DNA from: Alphaproteobacteria bacterium
GTDB lineage: Bacteria; Pseudomonadota; Alphaproteobacteria; UBA2966
Direction of reading: 5' to 3'
Assembly (NCBI GenBank): GCA_964291395.2
Contig: OZ219856.1
Coordinates: 1,760,001-1,824,000 of the forward strand
DNA length: 64,000 nucleotides
The notes below the pieces were generated by a model. That model did not search any database. It saw only the letters and a program-made list of their open reading frames with translations, and was not told where the DNA came from. A program made the position numbers and the translations under genes. The stretch's first letter is position 1, and every line of letters begins with the position of its first letter. Of the stretch, positions 10,390 through 20,402 are shown piece after piece.

Positions 10390-11601
10390 TTATTCACAAT
10401 GCAATAGACGACGATGCTCCGAAAGTGCATAACGGTCCGTCATTCCAGCAATGAAATCACAGACGAGGCGAGGGAGTCCCGAGGGTCGGCACTCGCGTGC
10501 ACTTTCCCGCCATTCCTCCGGCAATGCCTCCGGTTTCTCAAGGTATTCCTGGAATATCTCGGCGACGACTCGCCGCCCATAGTCCGACATCTCGTTGACC
10601 CTCACGTGCCGGTACATATTGCCGAACAGGAAATCCTTCAAGGCGCGATCTCCTTCGATAGTTTCCGCACTCATCCCGATCATCGCCCGATCGCTCTGCC
10701 GAATTGCGTCGACGTTCCGTGGAGCAGCCGCATCGAGGCGGAACCGCGACTCCGCGACCACGTCCGCGATCATCAGCGATATCAGGCGTCGGATGGTCTC
10801 GTGAACGGTTCGCGACCGCTCAGTCTCCGGATACAAGGTTTGAACCTCGGCAAGCACCGGCCCAACGAGGGGAACGTCCCGTAGATCGGCAAGATCAAAG
10901 AGGTCCGCACGGAGACCGTCATCCACATCATGATTGTTGTAGGCGATATCGTCGGCAATCGCGGCAACCTGGGCTTCGGCGCTGGCGAACGTGGAAAGCT
11001 CGAGATCATGAACCGCGACGTATTCCGCGAGAGTTTCATGCAGTGAATCATCGTCACCGGGCTCAGCTGCACGGGAGCCCGTCAACGGTCCGTTGTGCTT
11101 AACCACGCCTTCCAAGGTTTCCCACGTCAAGTTGAGACCATCGAACGCGGCATAGCGCCGCTCCAGCTTGGTCAGGACCCGCAGAGTCTGGGCGTTATGG
11201 TCGAAGCCGCCGTAGGGAGACATGACACCGTCGAGCGCCTCCTCCCCCGCGTGCCCGAAGGGTGGGTGCCCGAGATCGTGCGCCAGCGCCAGTGTTTCCG
11301 CAAGGTCTTCGTTCAGACGAAGTGTGCGGGCGATGGTTCGCGCGATTTGTGCGACTTCCAAGGAATGTGTCAAACGCGTGCGATAGTGATCGCCTTCGTG
11401 ATAGACGAACACTTGGGTCTTGTGCTTGAGCCTTCGGAACGCCGTCGAATGGAGTATCCGGTCGCGGTCGCGCTGAAACGGTGTCCGGGTTTCGCTCTCC
11501 GGTTCCGCGTGAAGACGCCCCCGGCTCGCTGCCGGATCGCATGCGTATGCTGCCGGCGACGGCGCGCCGATACGCGAAACGCCGTTCATGAGCCGGGACA
11601 C
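10390..11601 (-). CDS. dgt: Deoxyguanosinetriphosphate triphosphohydrolase (HD family)
   Basis: [43 protein letters not shown]; exact start uncertain. Confidence 0.95.
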
Positions 11602-11734
11602 TACTCCGGGCTCCGGTCACCTGCAATGCTGTTTGCACCGCCACTAACGCTTACGGCAAGGTTGGTAATTGCTCCAGGTTTCTTATATACATGGAGCACA
11701 TGATGAGAATCTTTCTCGGCAGGTTAAGCGACGC

Positions 11735-12082
11735 ATGATGAGCGATCGTGAACTGACACCCATGACATTGAGCGAGAATGCGGCCCGGCGCATCCGTTTC
11801 CTCATGGAGCGGGAAAACCAGCCCGACGCGGCCGTCCGGGTCACTGTGAGCGGCGGCGGTTGCGCCGGCTTCCAGTACGGCTTCGACTTCGACGTGACGG
11901 TGGCCGAGGACGACTTCGTGTTCGAGCGGGACGGGGCTTGCATCGTCGTGGATCCCCTGTCGTTGAGCTTTCTTCAGGGCTCCGAAGTCGACTACGTCGA
12001 AGAACTGATCGGCGCGTCGTTCCAGATCACGATTCCCAAGGCCTCCTCCTCCTGCAGTTGCGGAACGTCATTCGCGATGTGA
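11735..12082 (+). CDS. erpA: Fe-S cluster insertion protein (ErpA/IscA/HesB family)
   Basis: GGGCAGFQYGF and C-terminal CSCGTSF; dgt-erpA-xth synteny. Confidence 0.9.
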   Translation: MMSDRELTPMTLSENAARRIRFLMERENQPDAAVRVTVSGGGCAGFQYGFDFDVTVAEDDFVFERDGACIVVDPLSLSFLQGSEVDYVEELIGASFQITIPKASSSCSCGTSFAM

Positions 12083-12166
12083 GGTACAGGCGGGCTGTCG
12101 GCACATCTACACTGTGCTAAGAACAGGCTCGGGCTTCCGGGCCTTTCTTGATTCGCAAGGAACCCT

Positions 12167-12937
12167 ATGAAGATCGCAACCTGGAACGTCAACTCGGTGA
12201 AGGCACGGCTGCCTCACGTCATCGACTATCTGCGTGAGAAATCGCCCGACGTGATCCTGTTGCAGGAAACCAAGGTCGTCGATGAAGCCTTTCCCGCCTT
12301 CGAGATCGAGGAGCTGGGTTACAACGTCGCCGTCCACGGCCAGAAGACCTACAACGGGGTCGCCATCCTCAGCAAACGGCCGGTCGACGACGTGGTGCGG
12401 GGTCTCGGAGGCGACAAGTTGGATGAGCAGGCACGCTACATCGAAGGAACGGTCGGAACAGTCCGCGTGGCGTCGATCTATCTTCCCAATGGAAACCCCG
12501 TCGGAACCGAGAAGTTCACATACAAGCTGTCGTGGATGGCCCGCCTCAGAGACCGCATGAAGGAGTTGCTGGAGACAGAAGAAGCCTGTGTGTTCGGGGG
12601 CGACTATAATGTGTGCCCCTCCGACATCGACGTCTACGACCCTTCGGAATTCGCCGGAGATGCGCTTTGCCAGTCTGAGTCCAGGAACCTTTTCCGATCC
12701 ATGATCTATCTGGGCCTGACCGACGCCTTGCGCGTGTTCCATCCCGAACCGGGCGTCTATTCCTATTGGGATTACCAGCGGGGCGCCTGGCCCAAAGATC
12801 ACGGACTGCGTATCGATCACCTGTTACTGACTCCGCAGGCAGCAGACCGTCTCGAGGCTGCTGATGTCGATCGTCGTCCGCGCGGCAAGGAAAAAGCGTC
12901 CGACCATACGCCGGTATGGTGTGAACTCGAGGAGTGA
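12167..12937 (+). CDS. xth: Exodeoxyribonuclease III
   Basis: MKIATWNVNS, LQETK, GDYN, GLRIDH, SDHTPV. Confidence 0.97.
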   Translation: MKIATWNVNSVKARLPHVIDYLREKSPDVILLQETKVVDEAFPAFEIEELGYNVAVHGQKTYNGVAILSKRPVDDVVRGLGGDKLDEQARYIEGTVGTVRVASIYLPNGNPVGTEKFTYKLSWMARLRDRMKELLETEEACVFGGDYNVCPSDIDVYDPSEFAGDALCQSESRNLFRSMIYLGLTDALRVFHPEPGVYSYWDYQRGAWPKDHGLRIDHLLLTPQAADRLEAADVDRRPRGKEKASDHTPVWCELEE

Positions 12938-12942
12938 ATGGC

Positions 12943-15612
12943 ATGGCCCAAGCAGAGGCAATCCAACTTCGGCACACCGTCTTGCATGACTGGCACGTGG
13001 AAGCCCGAGCCCGGATGGTCGAGTTCGGCGGATGGGACATGCCGGTCCAGTACCCCACCGGGATCGTGCAGGAGCATCTCTCGACCCGCCGGGCCGCCGG
13101 ATTGTTCGACGTCTCGCACATGGGCCGCTTCCGGATCAGCGGCGCCGGTGCCGAAGCTTTTCTTATGTACGCCCTGACCAACAACGCGCAGGCGCTCGAT
13201 CCGGGTTTGGCGCAGTATACCCTCATCGCCAACGAGACCGGCGGTGCGGTAGACGACGCCTATCTCTACCGGCTCGCAAAGAACGACTTTCTGCTCGTCG
13301 TGAATGCGGAAAACCGAGGCAAGGACTGGATTTGGCTGGAGGGTCTCAAATCCGGGGAGGTCACGTTCGCCGATGAGAGTGAACGCCTCGGCATGATTGC
13401 GCTCCAAGGTCCGGAAGCCTCACATATCCTGGAGCGAATCGTTGACGGCAGCGAACTCCCGGAAAACAAGCGCAATCGGCTTCGCGCAATCCGAATCGAT
13501 GGCCACGAGGTGATCATCGCGCGCACGGGCTACACCGGCGAGGCCATCTGTTTCGAGATCTTTCCCGAACGCGATTTCACGGTCGAGCTGTGGCAAAAGT
13601 TGGTCGATGCGGGTGCCGTTCCCGTCGGGCTCGGTGCCCGCGACTCGTTACGTCTGGAAGCAGGTTTACCGCTTTACGGACATGAGCTCGGTTTGGATCC
13701 GGAGGGACGCGAGATCCCGATATTTGCCAACGGTCTAGCCCGTTTCGGCGTCCGGCCCCTGGGCAATCAGGATTACATCGGACGGGCCGAACTCGAAAAA
13801 CAGCAGGATGAATACGTTCACATCATGCGCCGGGAACTCGACGCGCCGGTGGAGCGGCGCCTGCTCACCCATATCATTCAGCCAATCGCCGTCTTCGGGG
13901 ACCGCAAGCCGCTGCGCTCCGGATTCAAGGTGTATTTCGACGGGGCGCACGCCGGATACGTGACATCGGGGACCAGCGTTCCGTTCAGCGGCTTCCGCGG
14001 TCAGGGAATCACGGCGGCACCGTCGGACTCCCATGAGTTGCGGCCCATCGGTCTCGCCCTGCTGCGCTCCGACATCCTCTACGTGGCCGATCGCCCGGTA
14101 ACCCTAGAGGTCGAGGATGCCCGCGGCAACCGGACGACGGCCGAACTGGTAGAGCGCAACCTCTGGCCCGTCACTCCTTACAGCCGTCCCTATACCGGCT
14201 TTCGGCACGTTCCCGAGCCACCACGGACGGACCTCTCCGGCTTGACCGAACTCGCCCGGGACTTAAGGAGGGAGTCAGCCGCGAACAATCGCTGGCGGCG
14301 GGCGGAATGCATCAATCTGATCCCATCCGAGCAACCGACCTCAAGCTTTGTCGACTCACTGATGACCTCCGACCCCGCGGGCCGATACAACGAGCACAGC
14401 CGGGTCAAGGCGCTCGGACCCGCTGCTCCCGACGTGCGTTACTACAAGGGCACGTCGTTCATCATGGATAAGGAGGAGGAACTCTGCGCCGCCCTGCGGA
14501 CGTTCTTCGGCTGTCATAACGTGGAGCCGCGGGTGGTTAGCGGCCAGATGGCCAATGACACCGTGTACGATGCGCTCAAGCAGTACCGCAACCGTTTGCG
14601 CGGTGGAGACCCGAAGCCCATCGGCCGGATCCTCGTGCACGACCTCAACAAGGGTGGCCACCTCAGCGCCCAGGTGGCGGGCGCCCTCAAGAACTACATC
14701 GATCTCGACCCCCGCACCCGCCGGCCCGCGGTCGAACACTTTCCGTTTCAGAAGGAGAACCCCCACCGCATCGATGTCGGCGCGACCAAGGAATTGATCG
14801 CCCGAACCCGGCCGGAGCTCATCGTTTTCGGACGTAGCGTCATCATCCACACGGAGCCGATCCGCGAGATCGCGGAATTCGTTCACGCGCAGTTCGGAGC
14901 CGACAACCCTGCACGGCCGATCATTCATTATGACGCGGCCCACGTGCTCGGCCTGCTCGGCCCATATTTCCAGGATCCGTTCGCGGAGGGGGCTGACCTC
15001 GTCACCGGCTCCACCCACAAGACATTCTTCGGACCACAACGGGGAATCGTGCTAGGCAACATTCCGCCGGGGTCGGTATTCGAGCCTCTGTGGGACTACA
15101 TCAGTTCGCGAACCTTTCCCGGCCACGTCAGCAATCATCATCTCGGCACGATGCTGGGCCTCCTCGGTGCCACGTACGAAATGCTTGCCTTCAAGGACGA
15201 CTATCCGAAGCAGGTGATCGCCAACTCGAAGGCCTTCGCACACGGGTTGGTGGAGAACGGCATGGCGCTCGAAGGTGATCCAGAATGCGATTATACGGAT
15301 ACCCATCAGGTGCTGATCCGTACCGCCCGCAGCCGCGGGGAGTTCATCGCCAGCCTGTTCGAGGCCAACAACGTCATCACCAATCCACAGGCCTATTGGG
15401 ACGACGCAAGTTTCGCCGTCGCCAGCGGCGTACGCACCGGCACCCAGGAAATGACGCGCTACGGCATGAAGGAGTCGGACTTCGTCGAGTTGGCCGCACT
15501 CGTCGCCGACATCGCCCGCAACGGCGAGACCCAGCCTGACGGTCACTGGAAGGAGCAGGTGAAAGCGTTCCGCGCCCGCTTCAGCGAGATGACCTATTGC
15601 CTGGGGTGCTAG
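12943..15612 (+). CDS. Fusion: aminomethyltransferase (GcvT) + serine hydroxymethyltransferase
   Basis: N-half: FGGWDMPVQY, GLFDVSHMG, RTGYTGE, GLGARDSLRLEAG. C-half: INLIPSE, GGHLS, DAAHVLGL, GSTHKTFFGPQRG (PLP Lys), SNHH. One open frame. Confidence 0.93.
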   Translation: MAQAEAIQLRHTVLHDWHVEARARMVEFGGWDMPVQYPTGIVQEHLSTRRAAGLFDVSHMGRFRISGAGAEAFLMYALTNNAQALDPGLAQYTLIANETGGAVDDAYLYRLAKNDFLLVVNAENRGKDWIWLEGLKSGEVTFADESERLGMIALQGPEASHILERIVDGSELPENKRNRLRAIRIDGHEVIIARTGYTGEAICFEIFPERDFTVELWQKLVDAGAVPVGLGARDSLRLEAGLPLYGHELGLDPEGREIPIFANGLARFGVRPLGNQDYIGRAELEKQQDEYVHIMRRELDAPVERRLLTHIIQPIAVFGDRKPLRSGFKVYFDGAHAGYVTSGTSVPFSGFRGQGITAAPSDSHELRPIGLALLRSDILYVADRPVTLEVEDARGNRTTAELVERNLWPVTPYSRPYTGFRHVPEPPRTDLSGLTELARDLRRESAANNRWRRAECINLIPSEQPTSSFVDSLMTSDPAGRYNEHSRVKALGPAAPDVRYYKGTSFIMDKEEELCAALRTFFGCHNVEPRVVSGQMANDTVYDALKQYRNRLRGGDPKPIGRILVHDLNKGGHLSAQVAGALKNYIDLDPRTRRPAVEHFPFQKENPHRIDVGATKELIARTRPELIVFGRSVIIHTEPIREIAEFVHAQFGADNPARPIIHYDAAHVLGLLGPYFQDPFAEGADLVTGSTHKTFFGPQRGIVLGNIPPGSVFEPLWDYISSRTFPGHVSNHHLGTMLGLLGATYEMLAFKDDYPKQVIANSKAFAHGLVENGMALEGDPECDYTDTHQVLIRTARSRGEFIASLFEANNVITNPQAYWDDASFAVASGVRTGTQEMTRYGMKESDFVELAALVADIARNGETQPDGHWKEQVKAFRARFSEMTYCLGC

Positions 15613-17156
15613 GCTTGGCCGCGTGCCGGCATGCGGATCAGAGCGAGAACGGGCAGACACAGGAGACTGGCCACCGCCAGCCACAGAAAGTCGTCGCTGT
15701 AAGCGACGGCCGCGGCCTGTCGGGTCGCCTCAAGATTAAGCGCCGCCGCACCGGCGGATTCGGCCAAGCTCCAGAAGTCGGGAAGCGGCAGGTGACGCAG
15801 GGTTTCGTTGAACGGTGAGGCATAGTCTCGGAGCACGCTCCGGTTGGCCTGAGTCTCCCTCACCACGTAGGCCACGGCCAGGGAAACTCCGACACTGCTG
15901 CCAAAATTCCGGCTGAGGGAAAACAGTCCTGTCCCTACGTCCCGATACTGCCTGGGCAATGTCGAGAATGTCACCACGCTGAGCGGCACGAAATAGAACC
16001 CGACGCCGAACCCGTGGGCAAACACCGCGGCGTAGAACAGCCAGCGCTCGAATTCGGGCGTGAACAAGGACATCTGCCAGTTGGCCCAGACGAGGGCGGC
16101 GATGCCGACGGCCATCAGGGGCACCGGATGGACGCGCCCGACCAGCCGTCCGCCCGACATCGAGCCCACCGCATTACCGGCGGCCTGCGGCACCATGACG
16201 AGGCCCGTCAGGAACACCGGATAGCCCGCCAGCGACTGCAGGTACGGCGAAATCAACGCCAAGAACGCCAGCCAATGGATGCCCAGCATGAACATCAGCA
16301 GCAGGCCAACCATGAAATTGCGATCGGCGAAGACGGTCCGGGGAATGAAGGGTCGGGAGGAGTAAATGCTGTGGACGACGAAGAAGTACAGGGCGACGGC
16401 GGCGAGCATTGAGGCCATCACGATCTGGGGCGCCGAGAACCAGTCCATCCGCTCGCCGCGGCTCAGTACGATCTGCAAAGACACCAGTCCCACCGACAGG
16501 ATCAAAAAGCCGACCAGACCGAAGGGTTGAACGCCGGGTCGCCGTGCCCGAGTCGGTGCGAAGATATAGATGATGGCGAAGGCGACAACGCCGAACGGTA
16601 CGTTGATGTAGAAGGCCCAGCGCCAGCTGTGGAATTCCGAGAGATAGCCTCCCAGCGCGGGTCCCAGGACGATGCCCACCATGACCCCAAGCGACCACCA
16701 ACCCATGGCCTTGCCCCGCTCCTCGGGCGGGAACGCGTCGAACACGAAGGATTGGGAGATGGGGACCAGGGGCGATGCGAACACGCCCTGCAAAAACCGA
16801 TACATGACGATTTCCCGCAGGCTTTCCGCCGAACCGGTGAACACCGAGGTGACGCAAAAGCCGACGGTGGTGATCAGGAACAGGCGCCGGCGACCCAAAT
16901 GACCGGTCAGCGTCCCCGTAAGCGGCATGAAGATCGCGACCGCGATGAGATAGGCGGCCAGCACCCAAGCGATCTCGTCCTGGGTCGCCGAGAGCGATCC
17001 CTGGATGCGGGGCATGGCCACCGTGGCCATGGTGGTATCGAGTACCTGAAGATTCGCTCCCAGCACGACTCCGGCAAAGATCAGCAGACGGTAGCGCATG
17101 GGCGCATCTGGAGGGATGGACTCCGGGGTCGCGGGCGAGGATTCCTGAACTGTCAT
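15609..17156 (-). CDS. DHA2 (EmrB/QacA) family MFS efflux permease
   Basis: LDTTMATVAMPRIQGSLSAT, WRWAFYINVPFG, many TM segments. Confidence 0.92.
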   Translation of the reverse strand: MTVQESSPATPESIPPDAPMRYRLLIFAGVVLGANLQVLDTTMATVAMPRIQGSLSATQDEIAWVLAAYLIAVAIFMPLTGTLTGHLGRRRLFLITTVGFCVTSVFTGSAESLREIVMYRFLQGVFASPLVPISQSFVFDAFPPEERGKAMGWWSLGVMVGIVLGPALGGYLSEFHSWRWAFYINVPFGVVAFAIIYIFAPTRARRPGVQPFGLVGFLILSVGLVSLQIVLSRGERMDWFSAPQIVMASMLAAVALYFFVVHSIYSSRPFIPRTVFADRNFMVGLLLMFMLGIHWLAFLALISPYLQSLAGYPVFLTGLVMVPQAAGNAVGSMSGGRLVGRVHPVPLMAVGIAALVWANWQMSLFTPEFERWLFYAAVFAHGFGVGFYFVPLSVVTFSTLPRQYRDVGTGLFSLSRNFGSSVGVSLAVAYVVRETQANRSVLRDYASPFNETLRHLPLPDFWSLAESAGAAALNLEATRQAAAVAYSDDFLWLAVASLLCLPVLALIRMPARGQA

Positions 17157-17396: not shown

Positions 17397-19121
17397 TCAG
17401 ATGTCGGCGTACTGACGAACCTCCGCGTGACCGCCGGGATGGGTCACGGCGCCCTTCTCCGCCGAGCCGACCGTCTGGGCATACTTCCACAGCGTGCCCG
17501 ACTGGAAGTCAGTGGTTCTAGCAGTCCACGACTCCCGACGTTTGTCGAGCTCATCTTCCGACAACTCGACGTCGAGCGTTCCCTTCTCCGCATCGATATG
17601 GATGATGTCACCGTTTTCGAGCAGACCGATCGGCCCACCCACCGCCGCCTCGGGACCGATGTGACCGACGCAGAAGCCGCGCGTCGCGCCGGAAAACCGG
17701 CCGTCCGTGATGAGCGCGAGTTTTTCGCCCATGCCTTGGCCGTAGATCGCAGCCGTCGTCGACAACATTTCGCGCATTCCGGGACCGCCACGAGGTCCTT
17801 CATAGCGAATGACAATGACGTCACCCTCCTCATACTCCTTGTTCCGCACCGCGTCGAAGGCTTCCTCCTCGCAGTCGAATACCCGTGCGGGACCCGAGAA
17901 CTGGAGACGCGCGAGGCCCGCGATCTTCACGATTCCGCCCTCCTGCGCGAGATTGCCCTTGAGGCCGACCACGCCACCGGTCGGGCTGAGGGGGTTCGAG
18001 ACCGGGCGGATCACGTCCTGGTCATCACGGAACGAGAACTCCTCGAGATTCTCGGCAACGGTCCTCCCCGTCACCGTCAGACAGTCGCCGTGCAGGAACC
18101 CGCCGTCCATGAGAGTCTTCATCAACACCGGCACGCCTCCCGCCTCGTACATGTCCTTGGCGATGTACCTGCCGCCAGGTTTGAGGTCCGCGATGTAAGG
18201 CGTTCGCCGGAAAATCTCACAAACATCGTGCAGGTCGAAATCGATTCCCGCCTCGTTGGCGATCGCGGGCAAATGGAGACCGGCATTGGTCGACCCACCC
18301 GACGCGGCGACCACGGTCGCCGCGTTCTCCAACGCCTGCCGTGTCACGATGTCGCGCGGACGAACGTCGTTCGCCAGAAGATTCATCACGGCTTGGCCCG
18401 ACGCTTCGGCCAAAGCGTCCCGGGATTCGTACGGAGCCGGCGCCCCGGCCGACAGCGGCAACGCCAGGCCCATCGCTTCCGACACACAGGCCATAGTGTT
18501 GGCGGTGAATTGCCCGCCGCACGAACCGGCAGACGGACAGGCCACGCATTCGAGCTCGTGCAGCGTTTCGTCGTCCATATTGCCGGCGCTGTGCATACCG
18601 ACGGCCTCGAACACGTCGACCACCGTGACATCCCGGTTTTGGAAGCGCCCCGGCAGGATCGAGCCGCCATACATGAACACGGCAGGCACGTTGAGACGCA
18701 CCATCGCCATCATCAAACCCGGCAAAGACTTGTCACATCCCGCCAGCCCCACAAGGGCGTCGTAGGCATGTCCGCGCATGGTGAGCTCGGTCGAATCGGC
18801 AATGACTTCGCGACTCACCAGGGAAGACTTCATCCCCTCGTGACCCATCGCGATGCCATCCGTCACTGTGATGGTGGTAAACTCTCGTGGGGTGCCGCCA
18901 TTTGCGGCGACACCCTTCTTTGCCGCCTGAGCCTGGCGGGACAAAGCGATATTGCACGGGGCGGCTTCGTTCCACGTCGTCACCACGCCGACCAAAGGCT
19001 GATAGATCTCCTCTTCACTGAGACCCATCGCGTAGAGGTAGGAGCGATGCGGTGCCCGCTCCGGCCCGACCGTCGAATGACGGCTCGGCAGTTTCGATTT
19101 GTCGAAGGTCTTGACGTCCAT
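17397..19121 (-). CDS. ilvD: Dihydroxy-acid dehydratase
   Basis: [46 protein letters not shown]; start set at MDVKT. Confidence 0.96.
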
Positions 19122-19376
19122 CTCGCGATCTCCCTGGTCGCTCTCGGTACAAGCCGGCAGCCGTTGGTCCACCCGCGCGTAGGCCGCCTTTTCGGCCATG
19201 CCTCGGTGGCAAATTTTCGACGGTCCCACCCCACGAATGGGATGCCTAACGTTTCACGGGTATGCCCGAAAATCAATTCCTGCAATCAACGATGCAGGAT
19301 GGCCCGACCACCGACAACTCTCGACACCGAGACGAGGCGTTCTCACCTGCCTCTATCCGCGAAACCGCCTCCGGCA

Positions 19377-19766
19377 TCAGCCGTCCATCTCCACCGTGGG
19401 TTCGATCTCGAGGACCATGTCCGGCGACGCAAGCCGCGAAATCTCGACCAGGGTCGCCGCGGGGCGGCTGACGTAAAGCTCCTGGATGGCATCCCTCGCT
19501 TCCTGAAAGGCGTCCAGATCGGTGGTGTATATCGTCAAGCGGACGATGCCCCTGATGCTGGCGCCAGCGGCGTCGCAGACATCTTTGATGTTCTGGACGA
19601 TCTGCTCCGCCTGCTTGCGCATGTCGGCGGGACCGTTGATGGAGCCGTCGGGCAACCGCGCCGTGATGCCCGAGATGTGCAGCAACTTTCCCGTCGAGAT
19701 ATTACCCGGCGCGTGCGGGACGTCTTGCTCCCATGGCTTGCCCGTGAATACGGTATTCTGACCCAT
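19377..19766 (-). CDS. RidA/YjgF family protein
   Basis: LLHISG, QAEQIVQNI, RPAATLVEISRL, LEIE. Confidence 0.85.
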   Translation of the reverse strand: MGQNTVFTGKPWEQDVPHAPGNISTGKLLHISGITARLPDGSINGPADMRKQAEQIVQNIKDVCDAAGASIRGIVRLTIYTTDLDAFQEARDAIQELYVSRPAATLVEISRLASPDMVLEIEPTVEMDG

Positions 19767-19811
19767 GTTTTTCCTCCTTGCTTCCGGCGGCTACCATTCG
19801 TTTGTCCGCGC

Positions 19812-20402
19812 ATGAGCGAATTTCGTTCGCGTTACCTCACATGGACACCCGAACCTGGTTACACCTCTGGTTCGGCCAAGGCAATCTGGCGTAGATGGGG
19901 ACTCGCAAGAGTCATCACGGGTGGTCAATCGGGCGTCGACCGGGCCGTGCTGGATGTCGCGGCCGAACTGGGTCTGCCTTGCGGAGGATGGTGTCCCCGT
20001 GGGCGCTGGGCGGAGGATGGCCCCATCGATACCTGCTATCCACTTCGCGAGACGCCGCTCCGCCGCGCCATCCAGCGTACACGCTGGAACATGCGCGGCT
20101 CAGACGGAACGCTCATCCTGGCGCGGAACAGGCCGCGCGGCGGGAGCGCCGTCCTACCGAGGCTGGCCGGCGTAAGCCATCCACGCACCGTAGTGAGTCC
20201 TGGAGACCCACGCGCGCCGGGCCGCGCGATCCGCTTCGTGATGACAAACGGAATACGGGTGCTGAACATCGGTGGTCCTCGGGAAAGCGAAGACCCAGGA
20301 ATCTATCTCGCCGCGAGGGCTTTTCTCCTACGGCTTTTCTCCCCATGCTGGAACCCGGCGAAGGCCACCGCCAAACACAGAACGAGAACAGGTCGACCAT
20401 GA
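19812..20402 (+). CDS. Putative molybdenum-cofactor carrier-like protein (SLOG fold)
   Basis: VITGGQSGVDRAVLD, GGWCPRGRWAEDG, SDGTLIL, VLNIGGPRES at the 3' end of the long 17427-20402 frame; start uncertain. Confidence 0.75.
   Translation: MSEFRSRYLTWTPEPGYTSGSAKAIWRRWGLARVITGGQSGVDRAVLDVAAELGLPCGGWCPRGRWAEDGPIDTCYPLRETPLRRAIQRTRWNMRGSDGTLILARNRPRGGSAVLPRLAGVSHPRTVVSPGDPRAPGRAIRFVMTNGIRVLNIGGPRESEDPGIYLAARAFLLRLFSPCWNPAKATAKHRTRTGRP

Follow-up and report, generated by a model that had tools for sequence, protein, structure and literature searches.

Among the genes of the 64,000-nucleotide stretch of alphaproteobacterial DNA analysed here (the window, C1:1760001-1824000 of its genome), one joins two enzymes of glycine and one-carbon (C1) metabolism in a single reading frame. 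This gene (12943..15612, + strand) comprises 889 codons and a stop. Its product begins with a glycine-cleavage T-protein (GcvT) half, aa 1-415 (12943..14187, +), made of a folate-binding domain and a C-terminal barrel. It continues through a joining segment, aa 416-435 (14188..14247, +), placed between the barrel and the first helix of the second enzyme, and ends with a serine hydroxymethyltransferase (SHMT) half of the M. jannaschii type, aa 436-889 (14248..15609, +). These limits follow from Pfam and NCBIfam matches, from Foldseek and from the secondary structure of an AlphaFold2 (AF2) model. A previous sequence-only reading had described a complete GcvT and a complete SHMT in one continuous frame, the latter with its pyridoxal phosphate (PLP) lysine preserved, and this description holds: the frame is open, translates into 889 residues with a single, terminal stop, and contains both domains and the lysine, K693 (codon at 15019..15021, +). 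We consider that the gene probably encodes a bifunctional enzyme, a genuine glycine-cleavage T-protein followed by a PLP-dependent SHMT, which would aid the conversion of two glycines into serine. This proposal leans on the completeness of both domains, both folds, the conservation of the catalytic residues, the orthologues found in glycine-cleavage (gcv) operons, the partner gcvH and gcvP genes present in the genome, and the strong conservation of the family.

The first half shows the marks of a T-protein at several levels. Pfam GCV_T (PF01571) matches aa 14-250 with 263.2 bits (cut-off 25.6), and the NCBIfam equivalog model for gcvT, TIGR00528, scores the half at 251.1, above its cut-off of 235.85; NF010093 gives 225.2, under its cut-off of 459. 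Among solved T-proteins, the half scores 216 bits against 1YX2 and 172 bits against 1WOO, and a Foldseek comparison of the AF2 model with the PDB places it on full-length 1YX2, 1WOO and 1WOS with target-normalised TM-scores (TMt) of 0.87-0.89, the barrel strands being visible at aa 310-402. HMMER alignments to 3A8I and 1WOO pair D104 (codon at 13252..13254, +) with D97 of the E. coli protein, and Y197, E205 and R233 with Y188, E195 and R227 of the T. maritima one. We take D97 to be the catalytic aspartate and the three T. maritima residues to be folate-binding. PDB entry 3A8K bears ETD97N in its title. All four residues are invariant in the 40 rows of the family alignment, whose members are 35-88% identical and from which the AF2 model was built.

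The strongest evidence that this half is a working T-protein comes from its placement in gcv operons of relatives and its status there as the only GCV_T gene. To describe this context, the open reading frames (ORFs) of 79 related loci and the window (80 sources, with flanks of up to 8 kb a side) were clustered. A gcvH gene lies in the flanks of the fusion in 10 of the 80 sources, usually directly adjoining it in the gene maps, and in 9 of those 10 the genes of a split P-protein (gcvPA/PB) are also found. Some of these gcv-linked loci add an lpdA-like dehydrogenase, an Lrp regulator, a serB-like ACT-HAD protein, LplA or lipoyl synthase. Five gcv-linked genomes were checked as a whole, and in four the fusion is the only GCV_T match. 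Four of the five also carry a canonical glyA (512-555 bits), while in the remaining one, a 2.1-Mb genome of completeness not known, the fused copy is the only SHMT match. Because the anaerobe orthologues form part of gcvH-gcvPA-gcvPB operons, and because four of five such genomes have no other GCV_T gene, we take the T half of the window's protein to be a true T-protein as well. No neighbour gene family is common to all fusion clades across the 80 sources.

The second half is matched by Pfam SHMT (PF00464) at aa 448-853 with 106 bits (cut-off 27), over profile positions 14-398 of 399. Four motifs named in the sequence-only reading were located in it: INLIPSE (aa 457-463), GSTHKTFFGPQ (689-699), FPGHVSNHH (725-733) and RTGTQEMTR (831-839). 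The PLP-binding lysine K693 of the second motif aligns with the THK lysine of the M. jannaschii structure 4BHD and of the genome's own GlyA, and S462, E463, Y482, E484, Y501, H573, D664, H667, H692 and R831 likewise align with both proteins. For all of these except E463, the matching residues of the E. coli SHMT are, we assume, S35, Y55, E57, Y65, H126, D200, H203, H228, K229 and R363. Among the 40 family rows, S462, Y482, Y501, D664, H692 and R831 are kept in all 40, E484, H573, H667 and K693 in 39, and E463 in 38.

The kinship of this SHMT half had been described as archaeal-looking and unlike that of proteobacterial GlyA. The second point is borne out by a PDB sequence search (E <= 1e-10, 81 matched), where the M. 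jannaschii entries 4BHD and 4UQV lead with 178.1 bits, the next score is 81.3 and E. coli 1DFO reaches 70.8, and by an identity of just 29% to the genome's own GlyA. Structural comparison by Foldseek gives a TMt of 0.89 against 4BHD, versus 0.86-0.87 against bacterial SHMTs. That 4UQV and 4BHD are the M. jannaschii SHMT is stated in PMC9876860, and the PDB titles of both entries agree. As for the archaeal look, the likeness to the nearest solved structure stands, but an archaeal origin does not follow, as both domains occur in the nearest ESM-Atlas clusters: of the 10 listed, 6 are mainly bacterial and 4 mainly archaeal. A tree of 59 rows, rooted on the GlyA of this genome, groups the fused proteins with their closest free-standing forms in a starred clade of 22 rows (99*). 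This clade lies within a larger set of free-standing relatives, 410-450 aa in length. These relatives mostly lack names; among 10 of their clusters that were looked up, 3 have a named member, and the one organism name is Candidatus Schekmanbacteria. “Archaeal-type” is thus best used for a likeness to the nearest solved structure, within a wider subfamily that, judging from the Atlas clusters, spans bacteria and archaea.

The genome (G000; 4.16 Mb, 98.1% complete, 9.0% contamination) possesses further glycine and C1 genes. It encodes a normal glyA (G000:C1:230317-231447), which scores 491 bits with Pfam SHMT and 546.9 bits with NF000586, together with one gcvP and one canonical gcvH (G000:C1:126324-130051, - strand; loci L028 and L116), the latter preceded at about 200 nt by a tandem glycine riboswitch (L028 215-422; 69 and 42.5 bits). 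The absence of gcvH and gcvP from the window, noted before, is confirmed by the positions of the genome's GCV_H matches (C1:129273 and C1:1208125) and of its sole GDC-P match (C1:127896). No gcvT stands beside the riboswitch-controlled gcvH-gcvP pair, and the T-protein for that operon must therefore be encoded elsewhere. The best-scoring GcvT of the genome (G000:C1:1208077-1209627, -; L015) is itself part of a 516-aa fusion, joined in frame to a GcvH-like domain that scores 96.4 bits, under the cut-off of 117, and that shows Arg at the canonical lipoyl-lysine position with a Lys one residue on. Three kin genomes have this T-then-H-like frame too, and the neighbours of L015 are housekeeping genes (purM-like, hda, ppk, ppx and rnd). 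Outside the window, then, a search for separate genes recovers glyA, gcvH, gcvP and this GcvT-GcvH-like fusion. In total there are 16 GCV_T matches, including a trimethylamine N-oxide (TMAO) demethylase (1200 bits), two soxA (sarcosine oxidase alpha), two DmdA-like genes and about six fusions of an FAD-oxidase and a T-domain of the dimethylglycine or sarcosine dehydrogenase (DMGDH) type. Such a set represents a large methylated-amine catabolic repertoire. With three candidate T-proteins at hand (the T-SHMT fusion, the T-GcvH-like fusion and a third GcvT-like gene), the question arises as to which of them serves the riboswitch-controlled gcvH-gcvP pair.

The AF2 single-chain model of the fusion reaches a mean predicted local distance difference test (pLDDT) of 91.1 and a predicted TM-score (pTM) of 0.88, and the latter value suggests a defined arrangement of the two halves. 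The joining segment has no secondary-structure element between the strand at 397-402 and the helix at 434-455, and its 10-residue blocks show a pLDDT of 83-93. No solved chain in the PDB spans both halves, the top query-normalised TM-score (TMq) in Foldseek being 0.44. The halves were also predicted as two separate chains, giving an interaction score (ipSAE) of 0.38 (runs of 0.42, 0.21 and 0.38) against 0.00 for the best of three controls, a result graded as weak support. Of 157 solved complexes, 116 reach the mark used for this grading, as do 2 of 215 mismatched pairs; at an ipSAE of 0.60 or less it is reached by just 18 of the 157 and by both mismatches. These counts are only a rough guide here, since the prediction used a custom alignment.

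In the mechanism that we propose, the T half would take the aminomethyl group from the lipoylated H-protein and release ammonia and 5,10-methylene-tetrahydrofolate, whereas the SHMT half would use the methylene-folate and a second glycine to make serine, setting tetrahydrofolate free again. With the P, H and L proteins supplied from elsewhere, the net reaction would be the reversible conversion of 2 glycine into serine, CO2, NH3 and NADH, and folate would act as a catalytic carrier that cycles between the two sites of one polypeptide. A coupling of glycine decarboxylase and SHMT is described for plant mitochondria in PMC6451014. For the present protein, we infer both activities, the dependence on H-protein in this organism and the direct hand-over of folate. 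A channelling of C1 units between the halves is plausible, and fits the chemistry as well as the operon contexts seen elsewhere. The carrier is presumably tetrahydrofolate, because the hosts of the fusion are bacteria. A more elaborate version, which we regard as possible but doubtful, would make the protein a self-contained converter of glycine to serine, where one bound (polyglutamylated) folate swings between the T and SHMT sites of a dimer; the Pseudomonadota members of the family, unlinked from gcv operons and riboswitches, would then be a constitutive housekeeping version in aerobic marine and sponge-associated bacteria. If true, such a converter would tie glycine cleavage stoichiometrically to serine synthesis, insulated from the free C1 pool.

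Several observations weigh against the proposed bifunctional enzyme. On the T side, Pfam GCV_T_C (PF08669), the model of the C-terminal barrel, scores 18.6, below its cut-off of 25.9, and NF001567 gives the fusion 297.1 bits where 300 are required. With this last model the GcvT of L015 reaches 357.6 bits, and in two more alphaproteobacterial genomes with the fusion a canonical gcvT stands next to gcvH; because of this better-scoring GcvT and of those canonical pairs, the T-SHMT fusion here is an additional paralogue, not the sole T-protein. Moreover, none of the loci of the Pseudomonadota clade (24 rows), to which the window's protein belongs, has gcvH or gcvP beside the fusion. On the SHMT side, the curated model NF000586 scores 223.8, under its cut-off of 335 (the model seems tuned to GlyA-type enzymes), and Q816 replaces the second N of the NKN motif in 38 of the 40 family rows. 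We place this N at N347 of the E. coli enzyme, presumably a folate contact. As for the coupling, the three two-chain runs show no agreement in their contacts (at least 0% agree), with a partner pLDDT of at least 91, and in the reductive direction methylene-folate is consumed by both halves, so that a hand-over is meaningful only for a flux from glycine to serine or from serine to glycine. Finally, our search of the literature found no measured activity for any member of the family.

Part of these data would also fit a T half that does not depend on H-protein, and that instead passes C1 units from another methylated or aminomethylated donor to tetrahydrofolate, as do DmdA, the T-domains of sarcosine and dimethylglycine oxidases and TMAO demethylase, with the SHMT half making serine from the product. 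Most of the 16 GCV_T matches of this genome are paralogues of that kind. The missing gcvH and gcvP neighbours, the slight shortfall with NF001567, the weak barrel score and the long stem (0.5) that sets the Pseudomonadota clade apart from the operon-linked anaerobe clade point in the same direction. However, the T half passes the TIGR00528 equivalog model and stays far under the cut-offs of the demethylase models (126 versus 1100 for TMAO demethylase, 55 versus 410 for DmdA), its nearest solved chains are true T-proteins, and its orthologues take part in gcvH-gcvPA-gcvPB operons, in four of five such genomes as the only GCV_T gene. We consequently hold another donor to be unlikely.

A different doubt concerns the SHMT-like half, whose PLP reaction in vivo could be another one: an aldol cleavage, independent of folate, of threonine or some other beta-hydroxy amino acid, or else a transaldolase reaction. 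Its main role could also be that of a scaffold through which the T half dimerises. An L-threonine transaldolase (7K34, 78.7 bits) is indeed among the PDB matches of this half, a canonical glyA accompanies the fusion here and in four of the five operon-type genomes, and the distance from GlyA, the shortfall with the curated SHMT model and the Gln at the putative folate-contacting position would all be consistent with such a change of function. But every PLP and catalytic residue that was checked is conserved (38-40 of 40 rows), a characterised SHMT is by a wide margin the best solved match, and the fused copy is the sole SHMT match in the 2.1-Mb genome mentioned above; fusion to a folate enzyme would, in addition, make a folate-independent role unlikely. 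A non-SHMT role therefore seems improbable to us, and the bifunctional T-protein and SHMT is retained as the preferred reading.

The fusion is far from being restricted to this genome. Scoring of 8000 candidates from a collection of 5.8 billion proteins gave at least 7852 at E <= 0.001, and the GCV_T plus SHMT build (PF01571 and PF00464) is present in all of the best 120 clusters listed, with lengths of 865-1050 aa and identities of 64-98%. The names given to these proteins, where there is one, are “aminomethyltransferase” or “glycine cleavage system aminomethyltransferase GcvT”. In a collection of species genomes, at least 536 relatives were found among 600 candidate stretches, and the 79 loci that were kept come from Alpha- and Gammaproteobacteria, Nitrospirota, Thermodesulfobacteriota, Spirochaetota, Chloroflexota, Planctomycetota, Bacillota, Actinomycetota and candidate phyla; none of the 79 is archaeal. 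The earlier suspicion that the architecture is not unique and occurs in some anaerobes was thus correct. We found no paper on a GcvT-SHMT fusion in the full-text literature, where most subscription journals fall outside coverage, and the protein is apparently a widespread but unstudied variant of two well-known enzymes.

At a finer scale, the distribution is patchy. A sample of the class contains the fusion in 6 of 401 genomes, the window's own counted (0 of 2 genomes of the same family and 0 of 1 of the same order), and a sample of the phylum only in the window's own genome (1 of 401, 0 of the 400 others). A full-length tree of 57 fused proteins separates an anaerobe clade of 33 rows, where all the gcv-linked cases fall, from the Pseudomonadota clade of 24 rows (100*, stem 0.5), and within the latter the Alpha and Gamma labels interleave. 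The window's protein stands in a starred subclade of 5 rows together with four kin assemblies (84-88% identity), which share with it an erpA-like gene upstream and an MFS (major facilitator superfamily) gene downstream of the fusion, the MFS cluster c38 being present in L029, L030, L032, L036 and the window. Because the family is patchy and the Alpha and Gamma rows interleave, an old lateral spread of the fusion is likely. The sequence-only reading had proposed a horizontally acquired enzyme, and in that form the claim is not sustained: GC content is ordinary, synteny is kept in the four kin assemblies and nothing marks a recent import. A recent arrival of the SHMT half or of the whole gene from archaea or from another phylum could be argued from the archaeal nearest structure, the patchiness and the interleaved labels, but it is highly improbable in view of the absence of a GC anomaly, the conserved neighbours, the single starred clade that the fused family forms among free-standing relatives of unnamed or mixed domain, and the lack of archaeal loci among the 79.

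Free-standing forms of each half also exist, SHMT-like proteins of about 459 aa (65-71% identity to the SHMT half) and T proteins of about 407 aa (72-78% identity to the T half). One genome, G228 (71% complete), has an SHMT-like gene whose start lies 381 nt from the end of a contig; a search of this incomplete assembly gave no matching “long” T gene, the best T match being 41% identical. In two loci of Candidatus Falkowbacteria (L097 and L100), a free-standing T-protein, 47-48% identical to aa 8-416 of the fusion, is followed by a class I/II aminotransferase gene in place of the SHMT half.

The integrity of the fused frame is well documented. Of 66 sources that encode a family member (the window and 65 related loci), 57 have a single uninterrupted ORF of at least 855 aa, the other 9 being three loci with two ORFs (L068, L076 and L105) and six with a shorter ORF, partly at contig ends. 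The junction (about 14190-14280), where a stop or a misassembly had been considered, shows neither: a 13,535-nt contig of run X2 covers 12500-16000 with 6 substitutions and 0 indels with respect to the window (this run may be the source sample or a near neighbour), a contig of run X3 crosses 14124-14368 with zero differences, and the 57 sources agree with a single ORF. An assembly or gene-calling artefact joining two adjacent genes, which the few two-ORF or shortened loci and the free-standing forms of each half might have suggested, is already refuted by the 889 codons without a stop, by the 57 of 66 sources, by the indel-free contigs of these two further runs and by the 2.6-Mb contig within which the window sits.

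With regard to public sequencing data, an apparent “joint” 13124>13520, which would have implied a deletion, rests on deep contigs that match over 24-30 nt and do not fit beyond that, and was read as paralogues of other organisms. In 17 of 24 listed public runs (16 studies), mostly labelled as sponge metagenome, half or more of the sampled words of the fusion are found, and the organism or close strains thus appear to be sponge-associated. Contigs from metatranscriptomic libraries (X18 and X19) cover parts of the fusion at high likeness; DNA is possible in such libraries, so these contigs are no proof of transcription.

Upstream of the fusion lies xthA (12167..12937, +), an exonuclease III-like gene (Exo_endo_phos, PF03372, 113.1 bits). 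The fusion has two possible starts in the same + frame to 15612, GTG at 12934 or ATG at 12943, and a Shine-Dalgarno-like hexamer, GAGGAG (12929..12934, +), read from the sequence 8 nt 5′ of the ATG, would have a ribosome-binding role. As the xthA stop is only 5 nt before this ATG, the two genes are probably co-transcribed. On the other side, a convergent gene for an MFS transporter (15609..17156, -; MFS_1, 190.7 bits) overlaps the fusion stop by 4 nt at its end. The wider neighbours are housekeeping genes (argS, a dGTPase-type HD protein, erpA/IscA-like and xthA, with ilvD downstream), and GC content is 0.58-0.65 over 8-22 kb of the window, with no step at the fusion gene. No Rfam family, a glycine riboswitch included, reached its gathering threshold in 11482-15192, and over the whole 64-kb window Rfam gave two tRNAs only and no glycine riboswitch.

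Two side observations concern other genes. Clades as distant as Pseudomonadota and Spirochaetota have an ATP-binding cassette (ABC) transporter for amino acids, of the LIV type, in the vicinity of the fusion. The cluster of its ATPase is represented in 8 loci (L031, L037, L044, L054, L061, L083, L091 and L092), and a binding protein and two permeases in 5; the transporter may supply the fusion by taking up glycine or serine. In the window itself, a 991-codon open frame at 17427-20402 (+) runs antisense to ilvD (17397-19229, -), with a family match limited to aa 829-970 (cpYpsA SLOG) and a DUF1028 gene following it. Probably only a short gene for cpYpsA is real here, the length of the frame being due to high GC content.

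The T-protein and SHMT together link glycine, serine and the folate C1 pool, a coupling that underlies photorespiration, and both also act in the reductive glycine pathway, which is now being engineered for growth on formate or CO2. A natural single-chain T-SHMT would offer a test case for folate channelling, as well as a candidate part for such pathways. Carriers of the conserved fusion bear at least a dozen phylum-level labels, and thousands of database sequences contain it under the sole name “GcvT”; metabolic reconstructions based on annotation therefore miss the SHMT activity in the many uncultured carriers.

How the fusion relates to known systems can be seen by taking its parts in turn. 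Like the free-standing GcvT or AMT (aminomethyltransferase, EC 2.1.2.10; 1YX2 of B. subtilis, 1WOO of T. maritima and the E. coli T-H complex 3A8I), its N-terminal 415 residues show the three-domain fold, retain the catalytic Asp together with the Tyr, Glu and Arg that bind folate, and pass the equivalog model. Unlike these proteins, the T half is about 50 residues longer than the solved chains, with insertions in the C-terminal barrel region, fails the GCV_T_C cut-off, does not lie beside gcvH here and continues into an SHMT. With the M. jannaschii SHMT (4BHD and 4UQV), its best solved match at 32-33% identity, the second half has in common the stretches YD(A/G)AHVLGL, GSTHKTFFGPQ, FPGxVSNHHL and SG(V/I)RxGTQExTRxGMKE. 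It differs from it in being joined to a T-protein, in extra segments (for example at about aa 545-562 and 583-600), in the Gln at the second N of NKN and in its bacterial hosts. Angelaccio et al. reportedly found in 2003 that the M. jannaschii enzyme is tetrahydromethanopterin-dependent. Bacterial GlyA (E. coli 1DFO and the genome's own glyA) shares with the fusion the Pfam family, the fold and the PLP and catalytic residues, whereas the two proteins encoded in this one genome score 106-108 bits (fusion) and 491 bits (GlyA) with Pfam SHMT.

As a whole, the closest functional parallel is found in plant mitochondria, where glycine decarboxylase and SHMT carry out during photorespiration the net reaction proposed here (2 Gly to Ser, CO2 and NH3), with separate proteins in plants and a single chain in the fusion. 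Bifunctional enzymes that pass folate between their sites are well known in DHFR-TS (dihydrofolate reductase-thymidylate synthase) and formiminotransferase-cyclodeaminase, and the T-SHMT protein would resemble them in the cycling of folate between two sites, which for the fusion is a proposal.

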